Assembly: GCA_963728565.1 (NCBI GenBank)
Contig: CAVSLC010000013.1
Location: forward strand, 160,001 to 224,000
Length of the DNA: 64,000 nucleotides
From: an uncultured delta proteobacterium
GTDB taxonomy: Bacteria > Desulfobacterota > Binatia > UBA9968
Direction: 5' to 3'
The notes beneath the pieces are model-generated. The model saw only the letters and a program-made list of their open reading frames with translations. It ran no database searches and was not told where the DNA came from. Below are positions 37,000 through 57,333 of this stretch, one piece after another; within the stretch, counting starts at the first letter, position 1, and each line of letters begins with the position of its first letter. The position numbers were made by a program, and so were the translations under genes.

Positions 37000-37028
37000 A
37001 AAACAAAACCGGCTAATCGGCCGGTTTT
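37000..37028 (-). terminator. intrinsic terminator
   Basis: Minus strand AAAACCGGC-CGATTA-GCCGGTTTT-GTTTT immediately after the amidohydrolase stop. Confidence 0.7.
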
Positions 37029-38080
37029 AATTTGCCGCTAATGGATACATTCTTTTGGGATTCTGCGTCATGATCTTTTGCTTAGTTTCCATCGCGAGGT
37101 CCTCACGAGCGACAAATTTACTGATATTTTCCCTGAATTCCGAGCGCGGTTCATGGGGAAAGTCAGTCGCGCAGAAAAGGATATCGTCACGGAGAAGCTC
37201 GACGATTCTCGGAATGCCGAGTTCCTCGAGTTCGCAATGGATGAATATGCGGCCGCTCTTTAGATGTTCCGAGGGAGCAATCTTAAGCTCGGGAACCTGC
37301 GCGCTACGGTGTTCATATTCCAGGTCCATGCGTTCCATCAGATATGGCACCCAACCGCAACCAGCCTCAGCGAACGCCACTTTTAGCTTGGGAAATTTGT
37401 CAAAAATACCGCCATAGATCATCCCCGTCATTTGAATCATCTGGCCGAAGCCGTGACTCAAGGTGCGAACCTCGATCAAACGGTCAAAGGCGTCCACGCC
37501 GATGCCTTGCGTCGGAGCGGCATGAACAGCCAGGAGCGCGTCCAACTCTTGGGCCGCCTCATAGACCGGAAAGTATCTCTCGTCACCGAAGGGCTGCCTC
37601 ATTCCGACTGCCGGAAGAATCGCGCCTAGCATGTTGAGTTCCTTGACCGCTCGCCGTAGCTCTTTGACCGCCTCCGGTATGGATTGCAGCGGAATCAGAG
37701 CCATGCCGCGAAGCCGCTTTTCCTGCTTTAAGAATACTTCGGAAAGATAATTGTTATAGCCTTGGGCGATCGCACAAGCCCAGTCCTTGTCCCGGATCAA
37801 TCCAAAAGTAAGCCCGGCGGTGGGATACAGCACCGACCATTCGATCTCATCTTCATCTAGAAAATCCTTCCACTCCTTGAGCGATCCCTGCGCTACATAG
37901 CGGCCTTTGCCATCGACGACGCGCAAAGCCTGACGGTGAAATCCATCCAAGGTCGGAAAGAACGGAAACGACAAGAGATCCTCCCTGCCCTTGTAAGGCG
38001 GCGGCAAAAAATCTAACAGAGCTCGATCATTTTCCACCACATGTCCGTCAGCATCGATAAATCCTTTAACCTTAGCTCAT
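37027..38080 (-). CDS. amidohydrolase_2 family protein; one extra base just after the ATG
   Basis: The metal motif IDADGH lies upstream of the called GTG; ATG-A-GCT-AAG at 38080 gives MAKVKGFIDADGHV if one base is removed; EAGCGW and TDFPH motifs. Confidence 0.82.
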
Positions 38081-38297: not shown

Positions 38298-39881
38298 TCA
38301 CCGATCATTAAGATCACTGGGTAAGATCATTTTGTGCGACAAAAACTCACTGACCACATCTTTCACCTGCCGCTGATCGCCATCGACAGCATAGTTGAGC
38401 TCACGCATCTCCTCGACGTTCAGAATTCCGCCCAGCTGTTTTAGGACTTCTCTTAGCTCAGGATGATTCTCCAAAGCCTTCTGCCGCACGACCGGTACCG
38501 CATCATAAGGAGGAAAGTAGTGCAGATCGTCCTCGAGTTGCACCAGGCCGTATCGGCTGATCAGGCCGTCGGTCGAATTCCCGGCAATCAGATCCACTTG
38601 CCTCTCCGATAGAGCGCGATAGGTCAAGGACAGGTCCATTTCACGAATTTCCTTGAATTGAAAACCATAGGTCCGCGCAAAGCCTGGATAACCGTCAGGC
38701 CGTGACATGAAATCCTGACCGAATCCGGCGCGCCATTGTGTTGACATTCGTGCCGCGTCAGTAATCGTCTTGAGATTATGGCGTCGTGCTTCATCGCCTC
38801 GAACCAGGATCGCAAAGGTATTGTTGAAGCCAAGCGGTTCGGTCCATTCGATGCCGAACTGTTCGGCGTAAGACGATTTGACCTGGCGATACACCTCTGC
38901 CGGATCCTTAATCGCCGGATTTTTTAAGATCGCCAGCAGAGCAGTACCGGTGTATTCGACATAAACATCAATCTCGCCGGCGATCATCGCCTGATGAGCC
39001 AGATTTCCGCCCAGATCGAATCGGCGCTCCACTTGGAGGCCGGTTTTGGCTTCAATCACCTGCGCCAGCAATTCACCCATAATGATCTGTTCGGTAAAAT
39101 CTTTTGAGCCAACAGCGATGCGGCTGGCACTGTAACCTCGCAGAAAACTGACAGTGCCAACCGCTATCAGGATGAGGGCTGTCGCCAGTGCCGGCCACAA
39201 AAGCTTGCGAATTTTGTGACTTGCCGCGCCGCGAAAACGGATTGCGCGCTCCAAAAATCCAAGAAACAGATCGGCAACGAGGGCAATCAAAGCAGCCGGA
39301 ACTGCTCCCGCCAGAATCAACACGTTGTCATTCGCTCTCAAGCCGCGGAAAATGTATCGTCCCAATCCGCCGGCATCGATGGCGGCGGCGATGGTTGCCG
39401 TGCCGACGCAGATCACGGTGGCGACGCGCACGCCGGCGATAATGACGCCGAGCGCTAGTGGCAATTCAACTTGAAGGAGCAGCTGCCGATCAGTCATGCC
39501 CATGCCGCGGCCGGCCTCCCGAATAGCCGGATCGACGCCGCTGATTCCGGTAAAAGTATTTCTAATGATCGGCAGCAGCGAGTATAAAACCAGTGCGGCA
39601 ATGGCGGTGCGGGCGCCGATACCACCGACGATACGCACATCAAAGAGAATCAGGTTGACCGGGATCAGAAAGCCAAAAAGCGCCAAGCTCGGCACGGTTT
39701 GCATGATGTTGGCAATGCCCAAGACGGGTTTGCTCAACGCCGGTTTACGCGTAAGGAGAATGCCGAGTGGCACACCGATCAGGAGCGCAATGCCGATTGA
39801 AACGCCGACTAGAAACAGATGCTCAAAGATCAGTGCAGCGAGTTCAGCCCGGTGCTCGAGGAAAAAGCGCAGCAAGCTCAT
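38298..39881 (-). CDS. osmoprotectant/EgtU-like ABC permease fused to substrate-binding domain
   Basis: QTVPSLAL, EA.RGMGM permease; GSK.FTEQ, EYTGT, NNTFA, STDG, FPPY OpuAC-type binding domain. Confidence 0.9.
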   Translation of the reverse strand: MSLLRFFLEHRAELAALIFEHLFLVGVSIGIALLIGVPLGILLTRKPALSKPVLGIANIMQTVPSLALFGFLIPVNLILFDVRIVGGIGARTAIAALVLYSLLPIIRNTFTGISGVDPAIREAGRGMGMTDRQLLLQVELPLALGVIIAGVRVATVICVGTATIAAAIDAGGLGRYIFRGLRANDNVLILAGAVPAALIALVADLFLGFLERAIRFRGAASHKIRKLLWPALATALILIAVGTVSFLRGYSASRIAVGSKDFTEQIIMGELLAQVIEAKTGLQVERRFDLGGNLAHQAMIAGEIDVYVEYTGTALLAILKNPAIKDPAEVYRQVKSSYAEQFGIEWTEPLGFNNTFAILVRGDEARRHNLKTITDAARMSTQWRAGFGQDFMSRPDGYPGFARTYGFQFKEIREMDLSLTYRALSERQVDLIAGNSTDGLISRYGLVQLEDDLHYFPPYDAVPVVRQKALENHPELREVLKQLGGILNVEEMRELNYAVDGDQRQVKDVVSEFLSHKMILPSDLNDR

Positions 39882-40645
39882 GAACAGCTCTGCGCCTTTC
39901 CGGTATCGTGAAAACATTGGACGAAAGCCCGAGCCTCAGGATGATTCGAAGCAAGAAGCTCGGCAGGCGGTCCCAAAACGATCATCTCGCCATCCTTGAG
40001 TAAGCCGATGCGCGTTGCCAGGGCGAAAGCTTCGTCCACGTCATGAGTGACGAAAACCATGGTCTTGCCCAGGTGTTTTTGCAGTGAGCGAAACTCTTGT
40101 TGGATTTCGCGTCGCGTAATCGGGTCCAAAGCACCGAAGGGCTCATCTAGAAGGATCATCGGCGGATCTGCCGCCAACGCACGCGCCACCCCGACCCTTT
40201 GGCGCTGTCCACCGGAAAGTTCCGCCGGATAACGGGCGGCGAATCTGTCAGGCTCCAAACTCACCATCGCTAGCAGTTCCCGAGCGCGGTTTCTGATTTT
40301 ATCGGCCGGCCAACTTTCAAGCCTGGGTACGAGCCCGATATTCTCTTCAATGGTTAGATGAGGAAATAAGCCAATCTCCTGAATAACGTACCCGATCCGT
40401 CGCCGGAGAATTATGGGATCCCAGGCTCCTGTTGAGATTCCCTCGACCCGCACTTCGCCGGAAGTCGGCTCAAGTAGACGGTTAATCATCTTCATGGTGG
40501 TTGTTTTACCCGAGCCGCTACGGCCGAGAAGCACCACTGTTTCCCCCCGGCCTATCGTAAGGTTGAGATCAACGAGAAGTTTTTTCCCTTCACCGATCTC
40601 AAAGCTGACGTTGTCGAATTCGATAGCTACTCGATTGTCGATCAT
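39878..40645 (-). CDS. osmoprotectant ABC ATP-binding protein
   Basis: GRSGSGKTT, IGYVIQ.IGLFPH, LSGGQRQRVG, DEPFGALDP; ATGA overlap with the permease. Confidence 0.92.
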   Translation of the reverse strand: MIDNRVAIEFDNVSFEIGEGKKLLVDLNLTIGRGETVVLLGRSGSGKTTTMKMINRLLEPTSGEVRVEGISTGAWDPIILRRRIGYVIQEIGLFPHLTIEENIGLVPRLESWPADKIRNRARELLAMVSLEPDRFAARYPAELSGGQRQRVGVARALAADPPMILLDEPFGALDPITRREIQQEFRSLQKHLGKTMVFVTHDVDEAFALATRIGLLKDGEMIVLGPPAELLASNHPEARAFVQCFHDTGKAQSCS

Positions 40646-40702
40646 CGATCCATCGTCTCCCCCGGTCGCATCCGATTCCACTTTCTTATATTCTATTTCG
40701 AT

Positions 40703-41731
40703 ATGGAAACAGAGCCGCTGCCTTCGATCCTTGCGCCGCATCAGAAGGCGCGATGGAAAACCAATCAGGACGGTATCTGGACCTTGGACGGCTCCCGCGT
40801 AGATGAGGTCCCAGCCCGTTCGATTTTGACAACCTTATGGGATCAGCCCCGCTGGTTGGAGGCCTATCACTTATACGATCAACGAGGCTCCGATCTTTTC
40901 GAGCAGATTTGTCAGCTGCCGGAGTATTATCTGACTCGTACAGAAAATAGCATTCTCGAAGCGCAAGCCGCCGCAATCATCGCCGCCGCGCCGGTAGAAT
41001 GCATCGTCGAACTAGGCGCAGGCTATAGCAAGAAGACGATTCATTTGCTTACGGAACAGCTGCGGCAGCGCGACAAAGGGATCTTCGCGCCCATCGATGT
41101 GAGCGAATCAGGGCTACTGGCCTCGCGAGAAGCGGTCGCCCGAGATTTCCCGCGATTAGAGTTTCACGGACTTCACGCTCGCTATGAGGACGGCTTTACC
41201 AGTATCGAGCAAGCCGTGCCGACCCTGTTTGTGTTTCTCGGCAGCACTGTCGGCAACTTCAATCACTCTGACTTTCCACGTTTCTTTCGCGCGTTATCGG
41301 AAGCGATGGGACCGAAGGATTATCTCCTGCTCGGCGCCGATCGTATTAAGGACACAACGCTTCTCGAGCAGGCTTACAACGATTCACAGGGGCTGACCGC
41401 GCAGTTCATTCTGAACGTGTTTTGTCATATCAACGATCTGCTCGGGAGCAATTTTGACCTGGCAAAAATGCGCTATCACGCGCGCTTCAATTCGGAATGG
41501 CAGCAAATCGAAATGTACGCCATAGCGGAGCAACGTCATCGAGTAAGCTTCCCTACAGTAGAAACATCTTTCGAGTGGCAGAAAGACGAAAAAATTCTGG
41601 TGGAGATCAGCCGTAAGTTCGACCCTCAGCGGTTACAGGAACAGCTAAGGTTTTTCGATCTCCTACCGATCGAGCACTTCACCGATCCTAATCAATGGTT
41701 TTCCGTTCTGCTCTTCCGCAAGCAAGGCTGA
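40703..41731 (+). CDS. egtD: L-histidine N-alpha-methyltransferase
   Basis: YD.RGS.LFE.IC.LPEYY.TR.E, VELGAG.S.KT, FLGSTVGN, AYND..G.TA.F, EISRKF. Confidence 0.92.
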   Translation: METEPLPSILAPHQKARWKTNQDGIWTLDGSRVDEVPARSILTTLWDQPRWLEAYHLYDQRGSDLFEQICQLPEYYLTRTENSILEAQAAAIIAAAPVECIVELGAGYSKKTIHLLTEQLRQRDKGIFAPIDVSESGLLASREAVARDFPRLEFHGLHARYEDGFTSIEQAVPTLFVFLGSTVGNFNHSDFPRFFRALSEAMGPKDYLLLGADRIKDTTLLEQAYNDSQGLTAQFILNVFCHINDLLGSNFDLAKMRYHARFNSEWQQIEMYAIAEQRHRVSFPTVETSFEWQKDEKILVEISRKFDPQRLQEQLRFFDLLPIEHFTDPNQWFSVLLFRKQG

Positions 41732-41805: not shown

Positions 41806-42451
41806 TCAAGGCATTCCCAATAACGATCCCAGTGGTGAAATACTCAGCAACAGAACACTGCCGAAAACGGCAATGCCGCCGCCTGAGATGCGATGGATCC
41901 ACCATAAAAGACGCAAATTAAATCTGTCGCGAAACACCGTTAGGCCGAGAAACAATGCCACCCACCACGATGCCGAACCTACAAAGACCCCGGCGGCGAA
42001 TAGCGCCGCGCCGCCATACTGGCCAATCATGCTCTGGGCATTCCAGGCGGCATAAATCGCAGCGAAAGACAGTATGGTCAAGGGATTGGACAAGGTCAGA
42101 AGAAGGGTTGCCACGTATGTTCGCAGAAGCCCATTGATTCTCTTCGTTCGCGGCGGCGGTTGTCCGGGACGCGTGCAGATAGATTTCGTAACCGAGATAA
42201 CAAAGAAAAAGCCCGCCGACGAGTCGGAAAGCAAACTGGTGATCAACTAAGAACTGCGATACCAGCGAAATGCTCAGGGCCGCGATGCCTCCGGCCAAAG
42301 CATCAGCCGTGGCGATACCCAGGCCGGAAAAAAGGCCATACCATGGGCCCAGAGACAGCGCTCGATTGATGCACAACAGTCCGAGTGGGCCAACCGGTAC
42401 TGCCACGACAAATCCCATCATGGCGCCTTTGATGAGAAGATGAATTGCCAT
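41806..42451 (-). CDS. LysE-family exporter; frameshifted near 42180
   Basis: The N-half PVGPLGLLCI.R.L..G...G..SGLG.ATAD and the C-half LTLSNPLTILSF...GVFVGSA.WW are in different frames. Confidence 0.8.
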
Positions 42452-42467
42452 TCCTGCCGTCGGAACT

Positions 42468-43289
42468 TTATTTTCTTGAGCGCGCGCAGCGAAAGCCGAT
42501 ATTGTGATGACCCGAACGGAAATTCCGAGAGACATGAGCGCCTCGATGGGTCGTCGTCAACTCTTCGGCCGCCGAATCCTGACCGCCTCCTCTGGTGACC
42601 CGTACGAGGTCCCGCTGCAACTCTTCACGGCCGTCAGCGGCATTATAGGGATAAGGAAGATACGCGCTGCTCACCCATTCCCAGCCGTTGCCGGCGAGAT
42701 CGAGCACGCCATAGGGGCTTGCTCCTTTCGGCAAGCTCCCCACCGGACGGAAGTCATTCCATCCTGCGCTGAAATGCGCCCGGGTGCGATCGGGCGGATC
42801 ATTGCCCCAGGGAAATTTTCGCCCGTCTGTGCCGCGCGCCGATTTCTCCCATTCCGCTTCGGTCGGCAATCGCTTACCTGACCAATCGCAGTACGCTGCC
42901 GCGCCGAACCACGAGGCCTCGATTACCGGGTGGTTCTCAAAGCCGGGATCAGACTGCCATTTACCGGCGCGAAGGTGAATGCGCGCGTCGTTATCAGCGT
43001 TATCGTACCACCGTTCGGCAGCTGCACCTCGAACGCCTTTGGCCTCGAGGAACCGGGCAAACTGCGAGTTCGTCACCGGTAAACGATCGATGAAAAATTC
43101 CGGCAAATCAATCCGGTGCTGTGGCCGCTCGTCGGCGGGCCCGTCGTCTCTGCCCATTGAAAATGGCCCGGCAGGGATTCTTCTCATGTCAGCGCCATCG
43201 TTTGCATCGGCGCCGGTCGTTTGCGCGATACATGCGGTCATTAATACGACCGAAAGTAAACCCCTCCGCCCAAGAAGAAAACGGCTCAT
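42468..43289 (-). CDS. secreted formylglycine-generating-enzyme (SUMF1/EgtB/PvdO) domain protein
   Basis: Signal peptide, IP.G.F.MG, RLPTEAEWEK.ARG, DLAGN.WEW, IGFRCA; lacks the FGE catalytic cysteines after RGG. Confidence 0.88.
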   Translation of the reverse strand: MSRFLLGRRGLLSVVLMTACIAQTTGADANDGADMRRIPAGPFSMGRDDGPADERPQHRIDLPEFFIDRLPVTNSQFARFLEAKGVRGAAAERWYDNADNDARIHLRAGKWQSDPGFENHPVIEASWFGAAAYCDWSGKRLPTEAEWEKSARGTDGRKFPWGNDPPDRTRAHFSAGWNDFRPVGSLPKGASPYGVLDLAGNGWEWVSSAYLPYPYNAADGREELQRDLVRVTRGGGQDSAAEELTTTHRGAHVSRNFRSGHHNIGFRCARSRK

Positions 43290-43384: not shown

Positions 43385-44530
43385 ATGCGCAACTCGCAAT
43401 CGTTTCGCCGCCGCGGTGTTGTCGAAGGATTCTTTGGTCCGGTGTGGAGCATGGCCCATCGCCGCCGCCTATTCGAGTTCGGCGCCGCTCGGGGAATGAA
43501 CACCTACCTCTATGCGCCAAAGGACGATCCCTTCCATCGCGAACGCTGGATGGAACCTTATCCTGAGAAGGAATGGCAGGCGCTCTTGACTATCATTCGC
43601 GAAGCACGAAAGCGCCACATCGATTTTGTTTACGGCTTTCATCCCGGCAAGGCACTTTTGTTTAGCGCCGAGCAACCGCTGCGCATTCTGCTGTCGAAGG
43701 CGCAGCGTTTCTACGATGCGGGAGTGCGTACCTTCGCAGTGCTGTTCGACGATATCCCTTCTCGTCTGGAGCATGCCGCCGATCGCAAGCATTTCAACAA
43801 CAGCTTGGCACGAGCCGAAGGAAATTGGCTGGCAGAAATTATCGCTCTTCAGCCGCCTGCATGGTCCGATGTGGAGTGGTGGATCTGCCCTTCGTTTTAT
43901 ACCCGCGATCCATTACTGGCGCGCGTGTTTGGCGCCTTTGAGCCGCATTTTTTGGAAAATCTAGCGAAGTACCTTCCGCCCAATGTCTCCTGCTGCTGGA
44001 CCGGCCCTTTGGTGGTATCGACAAAGATAACCCTCGCGCACGTTAGAAAAATTGCCAAGCTCGTCGGCCGGCCGTTGATTCTCTGGGACAACTATCCGGT
44101 GAACGATCTTTCAATGAAGGACGAGCTTCACCTGGGTCCGTTGAAAAATCGTGACACGCATCTGCCGGAAATCGTTTACGGCTACCTCAACAATCCGTTA
44201 GTTCAAGAAGAACTGAGCTTTATCCCTTTGGCCACCTGTTTTGATTATGCCTTAAACCCTATGGCCTATAGAGCGGAAGAAAGTTGGAACGCGTTCGTTA
44301 AACGCTCTTTCGGTCAGCGCGAGAGCGCGCACTGGCGCGCCATTCGGAGCTTCTGCGAAAGAGTTCAGCGAACTAAACGATCAAAAGTTGCCTTGCGCAT
44401 CCCGCGCAGAGAACTGGAGGCGTTGCAAGACGCATCAGAATATATAAAGGCACATCGTCAAGAAAAATGGGCCGTGGAAATCAAGCCATGGCAGGAACAG
44501 ATCGAACAAGCGCTTAAAGCGCAGCAGTAG
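43385..44530 (+). CDS. GH84 beta-N-acetylglucosaminidase (O-GlcNAcase) catalytic domain
   Basis: RGVVEGFFG..WS, MNTYLYAPKDDP.HR..W, catalytic LFDDI, WTG..V, IL.WDNYPVND; no signal peptide. Confidence 0.9.
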   Translation: MRNSQSFRRRGVVEGFFGPVWSMAHRRRLFEFGAARGMNTYLYAPKDDPFHRERWMEPYPEKEWQALLTIIREARKRHIDFVYGFHPGKALLFSAEQPLRILLSKAQRFYDAGVRTFAVLFDDIPSRLEHAADRKHFNNSLARAEGNWLAEIIALQPPAWSDVEWWICPSFYTRDPLLARVFGAFEPHFLENLAKYLPPNVSCCWTGPLVVSTKITLAHVRKIAKLVGRPLILWDNYPVNDLSMKDELHLGPLKNRDTHLPEIVYGYLNNPLVQEELSFIPLATCFDYALNPMAYRAEESWNAFVKRSFGQRESAHWRAIRSFCERVQRTKRSKVALRIPRRELEALQDASEYIKAHRQEKWAVEIKPWQEQIEQALKAQQ

Positions 44531-44598
44531 ATCGTTATAACTACAGTTCGTCCAAATCTTGATCGCGCGCCGAGACTAGCGTAAATTTTTCAGAATGA

Positions 44599-46029
44599 TT
44601 GATCCCCACAGTTACGCCGAGTTTGCGCGGCAGGCCACTTCCGGCAATGAAAGGCGCTGAGCTGATTTCGCTGATGCGAGAGTATCGTTCCCGTACCCGA
44701 GAGTTGGTTGCAGATCTTGATGAGCGGCAACTGATCGGACCGCGTTTAGCAACGGTGAACCCGCCGTTATGGGAGATCGGACACGTCGGCTGGTTTCAGG
44801 AGTTTTGGCTCTTGCGCCACCTGCGCCGGCAGAAGCCACTGCTTGAGAACGGTGATCAACTCTATAATTCAACGGATGTAGCTCATGATGTTCGCTGGGA
44901 CCTTCTACTGCCTTCGCGCAATAACACATGGCGCTATCTGGACGAAGTCTTGAATCGAGTCATCGAACCGATCGAAGGTAAGCATGATTTATCCAAGGAG
45001 GAGCTCTACTTTTACTCTCTGACCACGTTTCATGAAGCCATGCACGCCGAAGCACTGGCGTGCACAAGGCAAACCCACGGTTATCCCAAGCCGAGCTTCC
45101 TGCCCGCCCACCGTATAGACCAAAATCGATCTGATGATCTTTGCCCAGGAGATGCAGAAATTCCGGGCGGCACATTCTTGATCGGTGCGACGCCTGACGC
45201 ACCGTTCGTTTTCGACAACGAAAAATGGGCTCATGAGGTAGTTCTTCGGCCCTTCCGGATCTCGCGCGCGCCGGTGAGCAATAGAGAATTTCGAGAATTC
45301 GTCGAGGACGGGGGTTATTGCCAGCCAAACTGGTGGAGCGAAGAAGGCTGGCGCTGGCTGGCGACCGGCGGCGCCCCGCAGCTCGAGCATTCGTTCGCAA
45401 AATTCTTCAACAAGCCGATCAAGCAGTCGAGTCAAGCGCATGCCGCTAAAGAGAAACTTGAGCATCCCATGTACTGGCGCCGTGACCCTGATGGCCACTG
45501 GCAACAGCGGGTTTTTGATCGCTACGTTCCGCTGCATGACAATCTGCCGGTTGTGCATGTCAGTTGGTACGAAGCGGAAGCGTTTTGCGCTTGGGCCGGA
45601 CGGCGTTTACCGAGCGAAGCGGAATGGGAAACTGCCGCATCGGCAGAACCAGCTCCCGACGGTTGCAGCTTGAGCAACAAACGGCGTCATTTCCCCTGGG
45701 GAGATACGCTACCGACTAGTGTCGAGGCAAACCTTGACTGGCAGAACGGAATCGTTGAAATCAGCGCCCATGGAGCAGGCGACAGCGCGTTTGGTTGTCG
45801 TCAGATGATCGGCAATGTCTGGGAGTGGACCGCTGACAACTTCATGCCTTATCCAGGATTTATCGCGGATCCTTATAAGGAATACTCGAAGCCGTGGTTC
45901 GGCACCCATAAGGTCCTGCGCGGCGGCTGCTGGGCGACCTCTTCGCGGCTCATTCGCAACACCTGGAGAAACTTCTACACGCCGGATCGTCGCGATGTTT
46001 TCTCCGGCTTTCGAACATGCGCAAAGTGA
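44599..46029 (+). CDS. senA: selenoneine synthase SenA (EgtB-like sulfoxide/selenoxide synthase)
   Basis: DinB-like domain with NPPLWEIGHVGWFQE and HEAMHAE iron ligands, FDNEKWAH, FGE-like C-terminal domain; directly upstream of senB; alternative start 44647. Confidence 0.88.
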   Translation: MIPTVTPSLRGRPLPAMKGAELISLMREYRSRTRELVADLDERQLIGPRLATVNPPLWEIGHVGWFQEFWLLRHLRRQKPLLENGDQLYNSTDVAHDVRWDLLLPSRNNTWRYLDEVLNRVIEPIEGKHDLSKEELYFYSLTTFHEAMHAEALACTRQTHGYPKPSFLPAHRIDQNRSDDLCPGDAEIPGGTFLIGATPDAPFVFDNEKWAHEVVLRPFRISRAPVSNREFREFVEDGGYCQPNWWSEEGWRWLATGGAPQLEHSFAKFFNKPIKQSSQAHAAKEKLEHPMYWRRDPDGHWQQRVFDRYVPLHDNLPVVHVSWYEAEAFCAWAGRRLPSEAEWETAASAEPAPDGCSLSNKRRHFPWGDTLPTSVEANLDWQNGIVEISAHGAGDSAFGCRQMIGNVWEWTADNFMPYPGFIADPYKEYSKPWFGTHKVLRGGCWATSSRLIRNTWRNFYTPDRRDVFSGFRTCAK

Positions 46030-46038
46030 TGCTCCAAC

Positions 46039-46995
46039 GTGAAAATCCAGCTCGTCACTCCGGCGCCGTTGCGCTTTAACAACGGCAACAAGATTACCGC
46101 CCTGCGGTGGGCGAAAATCCTTAGAACCCTTGGACACCGCGTAACGGTTTTGCAGCATTATGACGATAAGCCCTGCGATGCGCTGATTGCACTTCATGCG
46201 AGACGGAGCTATCGGTCGATCCGCCGTTTTCGCAAACTTCATCCCGAATTACCCTTGATCGTCGTCCTAACCGGGACGGACCTCTATCGCGATATCCGCA
46301 GCCACCGCAGTGCTCAACGGTCGCTCACGCTGGCGACGCGGATTGTTGCGCTGCAGAAGATGGCGTTGTCGGAATTATCCGAATCCTTGCATTCAAAAAC
46401 TCGGGTGATCTATCAGTCCGCGGAGCGCTGTTTGAGCCGTAATTCAAAAAATCGAGGAGATGGATTCAAAGTCTCAGTTATCGGTCACCTGAGAAACGAG
46501 AAGGACCCGCTGCGAACCGCATTGGCGACCCGCCGTTTGCCGAAGCACTCGCGGATCGAGGTACAGCATATCGGCCGGGCGTTGGATAAAGACCTCGAGC
46601 GCCGGGCGCGAGCCGAAATGGCGAGAAACCCACGCTATCGGTGGATCGGAGAGTTGGCGCATAAAAGGACCCGGGAGATTCTAGCGCAAAGCGATGTAAC
46701 GGTTATCACCTCGCGCATGGAAGGAAGCTCGAATGTGTTATCCGAAGCGCTCGCCTGCGCCGTGCCGGTCATCGCTTCGAGAATACCCGGATTGATGGGA
46801 ACCCTAGGAAGCGATTACCCGGGCTACTTTGCCACGGGCGACACGGTTTCACTGAGGGAAATTCTATTCCGAGCCGAAAGCGATCGGGCCTTTTACCGCT
46901 CGTTGCAATCAATTTGCAAGAGCTTGTCGCCCCTGGTGGCGCCCAAGCGAGAAGTGGCTGCCTGGAAACAACTTCTACAAGAGCTGCAATCTTAA
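46039..46995 (+). CDS. senB: selenosugar synthase SenB (Se-glycosyltransferase)
   Basis: VTPA....NGN..TA.RWA, ALHARRS, VLTGTDLY, GHLR.EKDP, S.MEG..NV.SEA, LG.DYPGYF. Confidence 0.92.
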   Translation: MKIQLVTPAPLRFNNGNKITALRWAKILRTLGHRVTVLQHYDDKPCDALIALHARRSYRSIRRFRKLHPELPLIVVLTGTDLYRDIRSHRSAQRSLTLATRIVALQKMALSELSESLHSKTRVIYQSAERCLSRNSKNRGDGFKVSVIGHLRNEKDPLRTALATRRLPKHSRIEVQHIGRALDKDLERRARAEMARNPRYRWIGELAHKRTREILAQSDVTVITSRMEGSSNVLSEALACAVPVIASRIPGLMGTLGSDYPGYFATGDTVSLREILFRAESDRAFYRSLQSICKSLSPLVAPKREVAAWKQLLQELQS

Positions 46996-46997
46996 AG

Positions 46998-48257
46998 CTA
47001 TCGAGATTGAGAAGGCTCCTCGCGTATCCAGGGTTTCACCCAGGGCAAGAGCAGATAAGCGGGCATCGACAACAAAAAAGTTAAGGCGAAATAGTTGCCA
47101 TAGCCATAATGCTCTGCGCCGAGCCCGCTAATGCCGCCGATCAAGCGTCCGGTCAGCGAGAAGATCGAAGAAAGAAAGGCATACTGCACGGTTGCATGCT
47201 CTTTTTGACAAATGTTCATGAGAAAGGCCAGGAATGCCGCCGTTCCCAGGCCGCCGCTAAACGACTCGAACATCGATGCGCTATAGAGGCCGTACCTTCC
47301 AAGACTTAACCATTCGACGGCCGAATAACCCAGATTGGAAAACGCCTGCAGTAAACCCAATAACCATACTGCATGGAAGATTCCGTAACGCGTGATAAAC
47401 GCGCCTCCGGCTAATGCTCCGGCTATGCTGAGAACGATGCCAAAGCTGGTGGGAAACAGTCCGATTTGAAACATGAGATCTTCCTGCAGCGGCCAAATCG
47501 ATTTACCGTAATCCACCCAGAACGGTTTGACCATCGGGCCGATGGCAAACTCGCCCAGCTTATACGTCAACACGAAAGCCACAAGAGGAATTACCCGCCA
47601 AGTCCCGGCCCATCCGATAAAGCCTTGCCACCAGTGCTGGCGCGCTTCCTCGGGCAGATGAAGCCGCGGAATTAGGAGCGCACACAATCCCAGAGCAATG
47701 AATAGCGCTCCCGCCAGGTTGAATAAAAGGCTCCAGCGCAGCGCTGCTGCGAGAAACACCAGCCCACCACCGACGAATACCAAAGCCACTCGGTAGGCGG
47801 AAGCGCGCACGCCATTGGCGGGCCCCTCCTCCTGCCGAGCAATCAGCCCGACTGAATAAGAATCAATGGCAACGTCTTGCGTCGCCGACAAGGTCGTAAA
47901 AGCGAGTACCAGAACGAGAACGAGCAAGCCGACACCGGCAACGTCTACCCACGGCAGCGCTAACAACACCGCTGCGATGCCGAGCATACAACCCAGTACC
48001 CACATGCGGCGATCGCCGTGTCGATGCACCAGCGGCGACCAGATTACTTTTAAAGAATACGGCAGTTCCAGCAGCCGCAAGCCGCCGATGGCGCGCAGCG
48101 AAACGCCGTGCAGCCGAAAGTAAACCGGCAGCACTTCCCAGAGAATAGCCGCGGGCGCGCCCTGAATGAAGTAGAGCAGCGCGACCACACCCAGCTTGTT
48201 CTTGGTTTCTGGCGCCGCCCGACTTACGCCGAGGCATTTCCACATCAGTTCCCGCAT
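46998..48257 (-). CDS. AmpG-like MFS transporter
   Basis: LYF.QG.P, PYSLK..WSP, SATQDVAID, ATVQYAFLSS. Confidence 0.82.
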   Translation of the reverse strand: MRELMWKCLGVSRAAPETKNKLGVVALLYFIQGAPAAILWEVLPVYFRLHGVSLRAIGGLRLLELPYSLKVIWSPLVHRHGDRRMWVLGCMLGIAAVLLALPWVDVAGVGLLVLVLVLAFTTLSATQDVAIDSYSVGLIARQEEGPANGVRASAYRVALVFVGGGLVFLAAALRWSLLFNLAGALFIALGLCALLIPRLHLPEEARQHWWQGFIGWAGTWRVIPLVAFVLTYKLGEFAIGPMVKPFWVDYGKSIWPLQEDLMFQIGLFPTSFGIVLSIAGALAGGAFITRYGIFHAVWLLGLLQAFSNLGYSAVEWLSLGRYGLYSASMFESFSGGLGTAAFLAFLMNICQKEHATVQYAFLSSIFSLTGRLIGGISGLGAEHYGYGNYFALTFLLSMPAYLLLPWVKPWIREEPSQSR

Positions 48258-50906: not shown

Positions 50907-51815
50907 CTACTTAACGGTCAATAACGCTTCTTTCGCTTCGTCGAGTTGTTTGAGTTCCTCTTTGCTTAGTTTTGGATACTGCAAATTTAGGGACGCGAGA
51001 AGGTCCACCAAAGCAGCTGCAACGATGAGGTGAGTAAACCATTTGTTATCTGCCGGCACGAGGTACCAGGGTGCTTGTTTGGTCGAGGTGTGCCGAATCA
51101 TATCCTCGTATGCTTCCATGTAGTCATCCCAGTGTTCGCGTTCATGGACGTCATTCACTGAAAACTTCCAGTTCTTCTCGGGTTTATCGATTCACTCTAG
51201 GAACCGTTTTTTCTGCTCTTTCTTAGACAGATGCAAATAGAATTTGCGAATAACTATACCATTGCGTGTCAAATAGCGCTCAAACTTCCGAATATCCTGG
51301 AATCGCTCTTTCCAGATATTCTTGGTGACAAGTTCAGGCGGGAGCTTCTGCTTCTCCAACAACTCCGGATGCACCCGCACAACCAGGGTTTCTTCGTAGT
51401 AGCTGCGATTGAATAGCCCGATCATGCCGCGCTCCGGCAAACGTCTCGCGCAGCGCCACAGGTAATCGTGATCGAGCTCCTCGCTGCTTGGCGCTTTGAA
51501 GGATTGAACCTGACAGCCCTGCGGATTGACGCCGGACATGACATGCTTAATGACGCTGTCCTTGCCTGCCGTATCCATCGCCTGAAAGATAACCAGCACC
51601 GCCCAACGGTTCTGTGCATAAAGTTTCTCTTGGAGCTTCGCCAAGATCTCGATTCCGGCGGCAAGGCCTTCCTTGGCGCGCGGTTTATCCTCGGAGTTTA
51701 AGTCGAGTGTGTCGGCAGGGTCAAAATCTTTGAGACGAAAACTCTGACGATCGGTGACGCGAAAGGGTTTGATCAACTCTCTAGCGCTCTCTATCATTGT
51801 ATCTATTGCCATCAT
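50907..51815 (-). pseudogene. ppk2: polyphosphate kinase 2 (class III-like) interrupted by in-frame TGA at 51192-51194
   Basis: QAMDTAGKD, FNRSYYE; the two ORFs are in frame: RFLE*IDKPEKNWKFS, where the family has R (CGA>TGA). Confidence 0.85.
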
Positions 51816-53484: not shown

Positions 53485-55586
53485 CTAGATCACATCATTG
53501 GTCAAATCGTTTTCGGCTCGTAAGATCTCATAGAGCCGGTCCTGAGAACGGATGTGTGGTCGACCCGTGCTAGTAACGCGTGATGAGCTACCGTCAGCAT
53601 GGATTTCCCAGGCTTTGGCGGTATCGCTGAGCTGAATCTCCAAGATCTCTTTCAGTCTAAGCTGATGCTGTGGGTCGAGTATCGGAAAAGCGATTTCAAC
53701 GCGTCGATCGAAATTGCGCGGCATCCAATCGGCGGAAGATAACCAGTACGCGGAATCGCCGCGATTATGGAAATAGAAGATGCGAGCATGCTCTAAGTAG
53801 CGGTCGATGATTGAAATGACCCGAATTTTCTCCGAGACGCCCGGAACACCCGGACTGAAACTGCACATGCCGCGTACGATCAAGTCGATCTGCACTCCTG
53901 CTTGGCTGGCACTGTAAAGCTCATCGATGATCGCAGGATCGGTTAAGCTATTCACTTTGGCGATGATCCGCGCCGACTCGCCGCTGCGCGCATGCTCTTT
54001 TTCCTTACGGATGCAGTTAAGGAAGCGCTCCCTCAGTCCAGTCGGCGCCAGTAGTAACTGCTGGAACTTCTGCGGTCGGGTGTAGCCGGTCAGCAGATTG
54101 AATAACTCGGTGAGATCCTGACCAAAGGCTTCCCGGCATGTAAATAGCCCTAGATCGCTATAAACGCCGGCCGTGCGTACATTGTAATTGCCGGTCGCGA
54201 GATGACAGTAGCGCCGAATGCCATCGATTTCCTGGCGCACCACCAGACAGATTTTGCAATGTGTTTTATATCCCACCAAGCCATACACGACGTGCGCCCC
54301 AATTTCTTCCAAGGCCCGCGCCCAGGTGATATTTCTTCCTCATCAAATTTTGCCTGCAACTCACAAGCACCGACACCTCTTTCCGCATTCGGCTGCACGC
54401 GCCAAGGCCTGAGCAATGGGCGAGGAAGGGCTAACGCGATAAAGGGTCATTTTGATCGCAAGCACTTTAGGATCTTTAGCGCGCTTCATCGACAAAACGA
54501 GTCACCGCATCGAAGGAATGGTACGGGTGAAACAGCATGATGTCGCCCGCGCGTATAGCGCTCCAGATATCGGCCGCACGTTCGAAAGCCACCACCGGCA
54601 AAGCTGACTGCGGTCGGTCTTTGAGGCGAGGCATACTGACCGCGGAGTAAAGCTGGAAAAGATCAGTGAACGCAGTAAAGCCTGTGCTCGGATACAGGTC
54701 CTCAGCTCCCAATTAGAGCTCATCACTAGTGGCTCACATTCCGCGGCAGCTCCGGATCGTAGTGCAATCGCACAGCATCACCCATTCGACGCTCGCGGAC
54801 ACCCTGCTCGATCGTCATCAACAGATCTTCGTCGTGCCGGCGCAGCATCCCAAATTCGGCGTCCCGAGTCACTCGGATGGCGTGACACGATCGGATCTCG
54901 AAGCCGTGATAAAGGCGTGGCACATACCGGCTAAGAACATCTTCCAAAAGCACAAACGCATGCTGCCCCTCGCGCGTCGGCAACGGCACGAAGCGAGGCA
55001 CGACGTGCGTTGGGATATGAAGAATTGAAAGATCGGTGTGCGGCAAACGGGAAGCTACGGTGGGACTCAGCGACACGACAAAACATAATGAGCGATTGGC
55101 AAGGTAGGGAAACGGATGTCCCGGATCGATGGCAAGCGGCGTCAGAATCGGATAAAGGGTGCGATTGAAAAAGTCTTCGAGAAAGCGCTCCTGCTCACCG
55201 CTCATCTCTTGCGGCCGAACCAAATGAATGCCTTCCGTGGCCAAATGCGGCAATATCGTATTGATGAAACACAGATGCTGTTCCTCGACAAGCTCGTGGG
55301 CTCGCTTCGAGATAGCTGTTAGGATTTCAGCAGGTGTACGTCCTTCCGGATCCGAATTCTGAGATCCTTTGAAGAGCTGCCGTTTGATGCGAGCGACACG
55401 AACCATGAAAAATTCATCGAGATTAGAACTGAAGATAGCTAAAAACTTAACCCGCTCGAGCAACGGCACAGTCTCATCTTTGGCCTCCTCCAGAACTCGC
55501 CGGTTGAATTCAAGCCATGACAACTCACGCTGCAGATACCTATGGTTCTTATCTCCGTCCATATTACTATCCTGATGTGTTCCCAT
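53485..55586 (-). pseudogene. ppk1: polyphosphate kinase 1 with several frameshifts between about 54330 and 54740
   Basis: RELSWLEFN.RVL, NLDEFFMVRV, DPGHPFP, HPY.SF, KTHCK, TGNYN, SADWMPRN spread over several frames. Confidence 0.88.
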
Positions 55587-55799: not shown

Positions 55800-57333
55800 A
55801 TGATGGTAGATCACTTTGCAGTCATCGACGTTGGCAGCAACGCGATGAAACTCCAAGTAGCCGTCGTCGATCAGCCCAAACGCTATCGAGTTGTCGAACA
55901 GGACCGCCAAGCTGTCCGTGTCGGGCACAATGTATTTCAAACCGGCCGTCTGGATCCCGCCATCGCCGAAGCGGCGCTAAAGGTTCTTACAGATTTCAAG
56001 CTAGTAGCAGACCACTATCAGGTCAAGGCCATCCAGGCTGTGGGCACCAGCGCTCTACGAGAAGCCTGCGATGGAAAATCCTTTCTCCGAGAGGCTCATC
56101 AGCTCGGCGTACCGATGCAGATTCTCTCTGAAGAAGACGAAGCTCGACTGATCAGCTTAGGAATTATGAGTGGCCTGCGCTTTCATTTGCCGCTCGGCCT
56201 GTTTTTGGACATCGGCGGGGGCAGTGTCGAAATCGCCGTCGCAAATACAACGAACGTTTTTTGTTTATTCAGTCTACCTCTCGGAGCCGTTCGTCTGACC
56301 GAGGAGCTATTTACCTCTGATCCGCCGCGCAAGCGCGAAATCCGCGACCTACGTCAGGTTGTTAGACAGAAGCTCAGGTCGGTTGGCCAGCGCCTTGGAC
56401 AGGAAAAGTACACCATGGCCTTCGGCAGCGGCGGTACTATGACTGCTCTAGCTGAAACGAATATACGAGTCGCCGGAGATGGCAAAAACGGCTCTCTGTC
56501 GCTTTTGCGGCGGACCCGGCTGAAAGCCTTATTGGAGTTGTTAACAACCATACCAGCTAAAGAGCGCGCCTCACTGATCAGCGGCGATCCCAAGCGCGCA
56601 GATATCATAGTTGCCGGCGGGCTGGTTCTCTATGAGATTATGTCGGAGATCGGCCTCGATTACATCTTTGTCTCGCGAAGAGGTTTGCGGGATGGCTTGA
56701 TGATCGACCTCCTACAGCGACATTATGAAAACTCAGGTGTATGGGATCCGGATGCAGAGCGCGCGGATTCCCTCGAGCAGGTATGTCAAAAGTATCTTGT
56801 ACGATGCGCCTCATGCCTACCATGTTAGCCAGCTTGCGATGAACTTATTCTATCAACTGAACGATCTGCATAAGCTTTCCGATAAATATTCCAGTATTCT
56901 ACAGGCAGCAGCGATGCTGCACGATATCGGCCTTTTCATAGCTGAGCCTAAGCACCATAAGCATTCCTACTATCTTATCAAAAGTTCGGGAATTAACTCT
57001 TTTGATAAGCTTGATCTCGACGTGGTGGCCAACATTGCTCGTTATCACCGCAAAGCGCACCCCAGCCAGAAGCATCTAGGTTTTAGTCAACTCTCTCCAA
57101 GCAACCAAGATGTGATACGAAAACTAAGTGCTATACTCCGAATTGCCGATGCGTTCGATTATAGGCACGACCAAAAAGTTATTGCCCTGACGTGTGCGGT
57201 GAAAAAATCCAAAGCTATCACTGTTACTGCTTCCGGCACGGATGATATCGGTGACGAAATCGCCTGGGCTTCGAAAAAGGGGCAACTGTTTGAAGAAGTT
57301 TTCAACCTCAAGCTCGTTATCCAGAAAGCATAG
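55800..57333 (+). CDS. ppx: exopolyphosphatase Ppx/GppA with HD domain; frameshift near 56797
   Basis: AVIDVGSN, GTSALRE, DIGGGSVE, GLRDG; the second frame has AA.LHDIG, HHKHSYY, ARYHRK. Confidence 0.88.

Follow-up and report, generated by a model that had tools for sequence, protein, structure and literature searches.

We studied a gene for a glycoside hydrolase of family GH84 that lies next to senA and senB, the genes for synthesis of selenoneine (an antioxidant that contains selenium), in the genome of an uncultured delta proteobacterium (GTDB lineage Bacteria; Desulfobacterota; Binatia; UBA9968). The stretch of DNA analyzed, hereafter the window, comprises 64,000 nucleotides, positions 160,001 to 224,000 of the forward strand of contig CAVSLC010000013.1 (assembly GCA_963728565.1). 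The association of this GH84 gene with the sen genes is real and amounts to a single evolutionary instance. We infer that the enzyme was probably recruited in this lineage as an accessory of the selenoneine pathway, for which a route of three enzymes and one spontaneous elimination was published in 2022. As its particular substrate we tentatively propose the bond between selenium and N-acetylglucosamine (GlcNAc) in the product of SenA, with a probability of about 0.35.

The GH84-senA-senB string

The window presented three open reading frames (ORFs) in the positive strand, corresponding to GH84 (43385-44530), senA (44599-46029) and senB (46039-46995). Profile matches and coordinates confirmed what a sequence-only reading of this DNA had noticed, i.e., a GH84 gene with an intact LFDDI pair located in the same strand just upstream of senA-senB. 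The identities of SenA and SenB were judged by NCBIfam equivalog cut-offs. SenA, with DinB_2 and FGE-sulfatase domains, scored 495.6 bits with the selenoneine (selenoxide) synthase model NF041186 (cut-off 420) and 329 bits with the EgtB model TIGR03440, under the cut-off of 360 for the latter. SenB scored 398.1 bits with the selenosugar synthase model TIGR04348 (cut-off 300).

The senA frame is open from a TTG at 44599, but alignment to the SenA model begins only at ORF residue 19, which favours the ATG at 44647 as the start; the predicted gene would thus span 44647-46029. The spacer between GH84 and senA (44531-44646) measures 68 bp up to the TTG and 116 bp up to the ATG, and senA and senB are 9 bp apart. 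To call GH84 immediately upstream of senA is therefore fair, yet the spacer could hold a promoter. As a separate observation, SenA has 460-476 residues depending on the start and the SenA model 382 positions (residues 19-475 aligned to positions 5-382), so that about 80 residues are inserted; the SenA orthologues of one related family (f3, see below) are shorter than that of the window.

The GH84 protein

The GH84 gene encodes a putative beta-N-acetylglucosaminidase of 381 residues. Its match to PF07555 (NAGidase, E 1.5e-80) scored 271.2 bits (cut-off 25) and aligned residues 10-316 with profile positions 1-289 of 295. The GlcNAcase equivalog NF041654, a multidomain model of 732 positions, was matched in its catalytic part only (model positions 144-430; 191.8 bits, cut-off 1000). 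An AlphaFold2 model, for which 26 sequences of the GH84 clade described below served as input, had a predicted local distance difference test score (pLDDT) of 89.4 and a predicted template modelling score (pTM) of 0.89. The top hits of this model in Foldseek were all GH84 proteins, PDB entry 5diy being the first (TMq 0.84), which points to a (beta/alpha)8 barrel like that of the solved GH84 structures. By sequence, the nearest solved structures were 5diy (E 5e-67) and then Clostridium perfringens NagJ, Bacteroides thetaiotaomicron GH84, human O-GlcNAcase (hOGA) and the O-GlcNAcase of Oceanicola granulosus (OgOGA).

The sequence-only reading had described the protein as a stand-alone catalytic domain devoid of a signal peptide, and most of this description holds. 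The translation, read by eye, presents no N-terminal hydrophobic stretch and enters the catalytic domain at residue 10; unlike the long secreted GH84s, the protein has no N-terminal PF02838 domain and no carbohydrate-binding domains. Stand-alone is not quite exact, as the AlphaFold2 model places a short helical bundle (residues 314-380) C-terminal to the barrel. The enzyme is predicted to be cytoplasmic.

The catalytic pair D122-D123, within L120 F121 D122 D123 I124 (translation FAVLFDDIPS), aligned to the same pair in 5diy and NagJ (DD, or DN where mutated). It was kept in all 26 members of an alignment of close relatives, 54-72% identical to the query and hereafter called the clade, and in all 138 other GH84 representatives covering the position. 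Residues K46, Y172, W234, N236, D241 and N270 were likewise invariant in the 26 clade members and conserved in other GH84s. We take these residues to correspond to the GlcNAc-binding positions in hOGA numbering. In OgOGA and hOGA, their counterparts contact the sugar and its N-acetyl group (PMC2973230). From the conservation and the model, the protein is predicted to be a catalytically intact retaining beta-N-acetylglucosaminidase.

Two positions distinguished the clade from the rest of the family. Phe17, present in 26 of 26 members, stands where 135 of the 138 other representatives have a Tyr (hOGA Tyr69, OgOGA Tyr10), a residue that in hOGA adjoins the sugar and the catalytic machinery (PMC2973230). 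His86 was invariant in the clade and corresponded to Ser in 112 of the 138. Phe17 and His86 occurred together in none of 139 other GH84 representatives with less than 50% identity, a signature by which enzymes of the clade are easy to recognize. The clade also stands apart in sequence: a search of 1.84 billion cluster representatives yielded only one full-length protein (56% identical) and a few partial ones above 50% identity, and the score then dropped from 485 bits to 276 bits for the next match. The isolation and the signature bear out the suggestion that sen-linked GH84s form a clade of their own. Separately, in the metagenome-assembled genome of one relative (L032:7218-8346) the GH84 match came in two overlapping pieces in different frames, i.e., with a frameshift, which could be a long-read assembly error or mark a broken copy.

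Linkage within the order

We inspected 41 genomes, the window's own (G000) included, from the order to which the window belongs and which is labelled 'Candidatus Binatia'; they fall into three families (f1, f2 and f3). The queries were the GH84 protein and the SenB family with its cut-off. GH84 was present in 37 of the 41 genomes, SenB above cut-off also in 37, and both in 35. In 30 of these 35 the two genes lay in the same contig and strand within 4 kb of each other; the linked genomes were 17 of 25 in f1, 3 of 5 in f2 and 10 of 11 in f3. When the unpublished genomes G012 and G018, both linked, were left aside, the figure was 28 of 33 (out of 39 genomes). Two genomes of genus g22 (G031 and G033, 95% and 81% complete) had neither gene. 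GH84 alone was found in G002 and G035, the latter an assembly of 190 contigs with a SenB fragment (104 bits) in another contig, and SenB alone in G001 and G008, assemblies of 620 and 880 contigs; three of these four genomes are fragmented assemblies (370-880 contigs).

Gene order was mapped by tblastn of the window proteins onto 20 loci. In f1, the typical order is an ABC (ATP-binding cassette) transporter and egtD, then at some distance LysE and an FGE-like gene, divergent from GH84-senA-senB, with an AmpG-like gene convergent to senB. In f3, the order is Amidohydro_2-GH84-senA-senB, with no other window gene within about 5 kb. Thus, GH84-senA-senB is all that f1 and f3 have in common. In three f2 genomes (G025, G027 and G029) an FGE-like gene is divergent from GH84-senB, and in G013 (locus L008) the order is egtD-GH84-senB; in these four genomes GH84 abuts senB, and SenA scored above its cut-off elsewhere in the genome. 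From these loci it follows that GH84 holds to senB more tightly than to senA. In two further loci (L007 and L010) an alpha/beta-hydrolase gene, accompanied in L007 by a glyoxalase-fold gene, is located between GH84 and senA.

The arrangement recurs over three families, with protein identities of 56-97% and changing flanking genes, and it is more than chance. For one set of 18 genomes, the maximum-likelihood tree of SenB and that of GH84 agreed in their main groups, as would be expected under joint vertical descent.

Operon and transcript evidence

The common strand, the short gaps and the conserved order fit a GH84-senA-senB operon. In the 14 relatives' loci with direct adjacency, the gap between GH84 and senA ranged from 25 to 330 bp. 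A scan for consensus promoters and terminators found no site in the GH84-senA gap of the window; in the region as a whole such sites were no more frequent than in shuffled sequence, and the scan is hence uninformative.

Contigs of soil RNA libraries from four studies (150-460 nt, 92-99% alike) matched the GH84, senA, senB, FGE-like and AmpG-like genes. The senA-senB junction was bridged by such contigs (X1 record 7 and X4 record 31). The convergent ends of senB and the AmpG-like gene were bridged as well, possibly by DNA carry-over or read-through. Contigs of X1 and X10 start at 44612, within the GH84-senA spacer, and the X1 contig has unmatched letters ahead of this start; strain divergence in the spacer is a more likely cause of these starts than a transcript start.

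Proposed role in selenoneine biosynthesis

In the published pathway, SenB makes 1-seleno-beta-GlcNAc (SeGlcNAc) and SenA joins it to hercynine as a selenoxide, which either undergoes spontaneous elimination or, with dithiothreitol, is converted by reduction into hercynyl-SeGlcNAc, a stable selenoether (Kayrouz et al., bioRxiv 10.1101/2022.04.13.486033). The mechanism that we propose would follow this pathway in its first steps: SenB would transfer selenium onto GlcNAc to give 1-seleno-beta-GlcNAc, and SenA would combine this selenosugar with hercynine to give the selenoxide. In the thiol-rich cytoplasm, part of the selenoxide would be reduced to hercynyl-SeGlcNAc, a dead end. GH84 would then cut the beta-Se-GlcNAc bond of the selenoether, and possibly that of the selenoxide too, by substrate-assisted catalysis in which D122 would polarize the acetamide and D123 would act as the acid/base. 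The products would be selenoneine and recyclable GlcNAc.

Rescue of the Se-GlcNAc adduct is the reading that we prefer, on three grounds. The first is substrate fit, since GH84 enzymes require a beta-linked 2-acetamido sugar and a leaving group, and both the SenB product and the SenA adduct match this requirement. Further, O-GlcNAcase reportedly cleaves thioglycosides without general acid catalysis, as the title of a 2005 report by Macauley has it, and the selenoimidazole of selenoneine can be expected to leave readily. The stronger claim, that the GH84 subfamily is a natural Se-glycosidase acting on the C1-Se bond of hercynyl-SeGlcNAc, with selenoneine released enzymatically by reduction and hydrolysis and not only spontaneously, we consider rather doubtful.

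That the sen operons of a widespread lineage of soil bacteria conserve a dedicated GlcNAc-hydrolase suggests either that the fate of the sugar carrier is enzymatic in vivo or that the reduced selenoether is a real intermediate in need of rescue. The enzyme also provides a candidate, easily assayed substrate for bacterial cytoplasmic GH84 homologues of O-GlcNAcase in bacteria devoid of O-GlcNAc transferase (OGT). A Se-glycosidase activity, if true, would mean that organoselenium biosynthesis includes a step in which an enzyme removes the donor, and it would give an 'orphan' bacterial O-GlcNAcase homologue, in organisms with no OGT hit, a small molecule as its physiological substrate. Either this activity or the hydration of 2-acetamidoglucal considered below could, if true, raise selenoneine yields in engineered producers.

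Distribution outside the lineage and points against the proposed role

Several results weigh against cleavage of the SenA adduct. A scan centred on SenB, with one genome per species, kept 80 loci and the DNA around them, at most 10 kb to either side. Of these loci, 22 were assigned to the lineage by a SenB identity of at least 56% and common neighbours, independently of GH84. Fifteen of the 22 carried GH84; of the other seven, four are contigs that begin inside senA and three (L027, L036 and L038) have GH84 in another contig. Near the SenB genes of the 58 loci outside the lineage, whose labels include Acidobacteriota, Burkholderiales, other Proteobacteria, Chloroflexi, Tectomicrobia, Planctomycetota, Rubrobacter and Bacillota, no GH84 was found even with 151 diverse GH84 queries, and PF07555 was absent from all ten whole genomes searched behind outside SenB loci. 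We also sampled 301 genomes of the phylum, one of the searches scoring no more than 7 candidates in each genome. The clade GH84 and SenB were found only in G000 and G015; in the other 299 genomes neither was found, and they provided no independent case.

The conserved linkage that the sequence-only reading had set as a test thus holds inside the lineage, in the 30 of 35 genomes given above, and fails in other phyla. Since GH84 was missing from the 58 loci and ten genomes outside, it is a lineage-specific accessory and not a general enzyme of the selenoneine pathway, and the same counts rule out that it is a general missing step of selenoneine biosynthesis. Because elimination of the selenoxide is spontaneous, the published pathway and its reconstitution need no hydrolase (Kayrouz et al., bioRxiv 10.1101/2022.04.13.486033). 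This absence from outside genomes, together with a reconstitution free of hydrolase, makes the GH84 step dispensable in other phyla. The earlier statement that the described pathway includes no hydrolase is supported: neither 'hydrolase' nor 'glycosid' occurs in the preprint, and none of the 31 rows of Table 1 in a 2026 survey of all NHISS genes and their neighbours up to 5 kb away is a GH84 (PMC13674229). An association of GH84 with selenoneine was not found in the literature searched, the supplements of PMC13674229 and of the Kayrouz paper being outside the search.

Other points come from the lineage itself. All the positive evidence derives from one lineage of kin, and the linkage may represent one ancestral event followed by inheritance. 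The attachment of GH84 to senB rather than to senA fits a SenB product as substrate as well as a SenA product. In at least two genomes of the lineage, G340 (L036) and G341 (L027), senA-senB is preceded by an alpha/beta-hydrolase gene and GH84 is located in another contig beside LysE and/or FGE-like genes. The GH84-senA gap (44531-44646) was bridged by no contig of the four soil RNA libraries. Finally, fusion proteins were looked for among 76 longer GH84 relatives (E <= 1e-40, all at most 42% identical), and none had SenA or SenB domains, a weak negative.

Alternative explanations

The tighter hold on senB invites the reading that GH84 turns over the selenosugar itself. It would act on 1-seleno-beta-GlcNAc, or on oxidized or dimeric forms of it, to release selenide and GlcNAc, so that SenB and GH84 would buffer, store or proofread selenium without SenA. 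The four genomes with GH84 directly beside senB and senA elsewhere (G025, G027, G029 and G013) speak for it, as does the joint absence of SenB and GH84 from genus g22. Yet all four keep SenA above cut-off elsewhere and show no sign of a SenA-free SenB/GH84 lifestyle, and hydrolysis of SeGlcNAc would undo a step costly in ATP and UDP-GlcNAc, so that we hold this reading to be improbable. About as improbable is that GH84 salvages the by-product of SenA, by binding the 2-acetamidoglucal formed in the elimination of the selenoxide and hydrating it to GlcNAc, thereby removing an inhibitor of hexosaminidases such as a GH3 NagZ-like enzyme. In the analogous OvsA reaction the eliminated sugar observed was indeed 2-acetamidoglucal, and the authors draw the analogy to SenA (PMC11030361), which gives a rival substrate absent from the sequence-only reading; 2-N-acetyl glycals are listed as hexosaminidase inhibitors (PMC6017319), hence the GH84 pocket should bind this compound. 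A GH3 NagZ-like gene is present in the genome, and the linkage evidence fits this salvage as well as it fits rescue of the adduct. However, bacteria with sen genes in other phyla form this by-product too and are devoid of GH84, and no report of acetamidoglucal hydration by a hexosaminidase was found in the literature searched.

It is unlikely, if less so, that GH84 has nothing to do with selenium, serves another GlcNAc conjugate and stays beside the sen genes by shared ancestry. GH84 could take part, with the AmpG-like permease, in the salvage of muropeptides or GlcNAc; it could act on a protein or metabolite that bears GlcNAc, or be linked with the FGE-like and LysE genes. The restriction of the association to one lineage would agree with this, as would the AmpG-like permease that flanks the block in f1 and the LysE and/or FGE-like neighbours that GH84 keeps when it is apart from senA-senB. 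The flanks nevertheless decay while GH84-senB persists over three families, no AmpG-like gene adjoins the block in f2 or f3, the two g22 genomes are without SenB and GH84 alike, and the GH3 NagZ-like enzyme already covers the removal of GlcNAc from muropeptides. A writer of protein O-GlcNAc, the GT41 OGT (PF13844), was found in none of six genomes searched, G000 (80.6% complete) and G005, G015, G025, G026 and G037 (97-100% complete).

Two specific roles were set aside. One was peptidoglycan recycling, in which the AmpG-like permease would work with GH84 as a NagZ substitute; the GH3 NagZ-like gene is present and the permease is unlinked in f2 and f3. The other was protein O-GlcNAc cycling, given that no GT41 writer was found in the six genomes. 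The conserved Tyr beside the sugar, another mark of a protein O-GlcNAcase, is Phe17 in the clade.

Comparison with known systems

The sen genes of the window resemble the senA-senB-senC cluster of Variovorax paradoxus in having equivalog-level SenA and SenB and, as in a subset of the published clusters, a co-located egtD (Kayrouz et al., bioRxiv 10.1101/2022.04.13.486033). A co-located senC, a selD homologue, was used to define the 827 clusters of that work. Here, in contrast, GH84 heads the string and no senC was found within the window; the only strong selD match in the genome lies in another contig (G000:C28:38569-39495, locus L002). Because the cluster is without senC, the SelD of this contig is the likely source of selenophosphate. 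As an observation on this gene, its frame has one in-frame TGA, and it probably encodes a selenocysteine-containing SelD. Another EgtB/SenA-like gene is located elsewhere in the genome (G000:C9:26047-27084); it scored 223.5 bits with the SenA model, below cut-off, and may encode an ordinary EgtB for ergothioneine.

Like the O-GlcNAcases of Thermobaculum terrenum (5diy) and O. granulosus (2xsa), the window GH84 begins directly with its barrel and continues into C-terminal helices, and it has their DD pair and GlcNAc-binding residues. It is only about 32% identical to 5diy over the Foldseek alignment and is shorter (381 residues versus 474 and 447 in the deposited chains). Its clade differs from both in having Phe17 for Tyr and His86 for Ser, in the tie to senB and in that no OGT was found in the six genomes searched.

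The likeness to EgtE and EgtC of ergothioneine synthesis is by analogy only, i.e., a donor scaffold is removed after the C-S or C-Se bond has been made. EgtE is a pyridoxal phosphate-dependent C-S lyase and EgtC an amidohydrolase; both are unrelated to GH84, and the reaction proposed here is glycoside hydrolysis, not beta-elimination. With AmpG/NagZ muropeptide recycling the window shares an AmpG-family permease and a cytoplasmic beta-GlcNAcase in one neighbourhood, but here the hydrolase is GH84 and not GH3, the GH3 NagZ-like gene is elsewhere, and the permease scores below AmpG cut-offs and is absent from f2 and f3 loci.

Flanking genes and other observations

The surroundings of the string look like a hercynine/selenoneine island. 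Next to GH84, in the negative strand and divergent from it at 95 bp, is a gene for a 273-residue protein with an FGE-sulfatase domain only (42468-43289; PF03781, E 1.8e-51) and no DinB domain, which presents an N-terminal signal or lipobox-like sequence (…VLMTAC…). Downstream of it in the same strand is a LysE-type exporter (41918-42535; PF01810, E 2.1e-08). The FGE-like gene is a conserved partner of GH84 in f1 and f2, and LysE travels with FGE-like and GH84. Where senA-senB is in another contig (L106 and L107), the pair or one of the two stays by GH84. The pair may be part of the same system, perhaps for export or periplasmic processing, or may be the older partner of GH84.

The AmpG-like gene (46998-48257, negative strand) encodes a permease of the major facilitator superfamily that scored 238.8 bits with TIGR00901 (cut-off 350). 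It is the only AmpG-family match in the genome and a conserved neighbour of senB in f1 only, and it could carry a GlcNAc conjugate other than a muropeptide.

On the other side of the FGE-like and LysE genes lies egtD (40703-41731, positive strand), which encodes the histidine N-alpha-methyltransferase that makes hercynine (TIGR03438, 297.1 bits, above the cut-off of 290.9). Back to back with it, in the negative strand, are a betaine-type ABC transporter (38298-40741), made of a fused permease and binding protein (539 residues; BPD_transp_1 and OpuAC) and an ATPase (287 residues; ABC_tran/proV), and, at the end of the transporter string, an Amidohydro_2 protein (37027-38040, negative strand; PF04909). 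This layout of Amidohydro_2 protein, fused permease-binding protein and ATPase by egtD presumably resembles the EgtUV type of ergothioneine transporter. The betaine-type ABC transporter class is a listed neighbour of NHISS genes (PMC13674229, Table 1). In f3, a paralogue of the Amidohydro_2 protein (about 30% identical) is encoded directly upstream of GH84 (L014-L018 and L023).

An alpha/beta-hydrolase gene (Abhydrolase_1/6) was located directly upstream of senA in four loci (L007:9953-11603, L010:10143-11036, L036:4402-5229 and L027:5-847); in L036 and L027 it stands where GH84 would otherwise be. It is a second recurrent accessory hydrolase of the sen operons in this lineage.

Away from the sen genes, polyphosphate kinase 1 is distributed over two ORFs in the negative strand of the window, one with the N-terminal and middle domains (53485-54312) and the other with the C1 part and the C2 domain (54726-55586), and the approximately 410 bp between them belong to neither frame. 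This suggests a frameshift, a pseudogene or an assembly error. Genes for PPK2 (51192-51815) and Ppx/GppA (55800-56828) are located beside the split gene.

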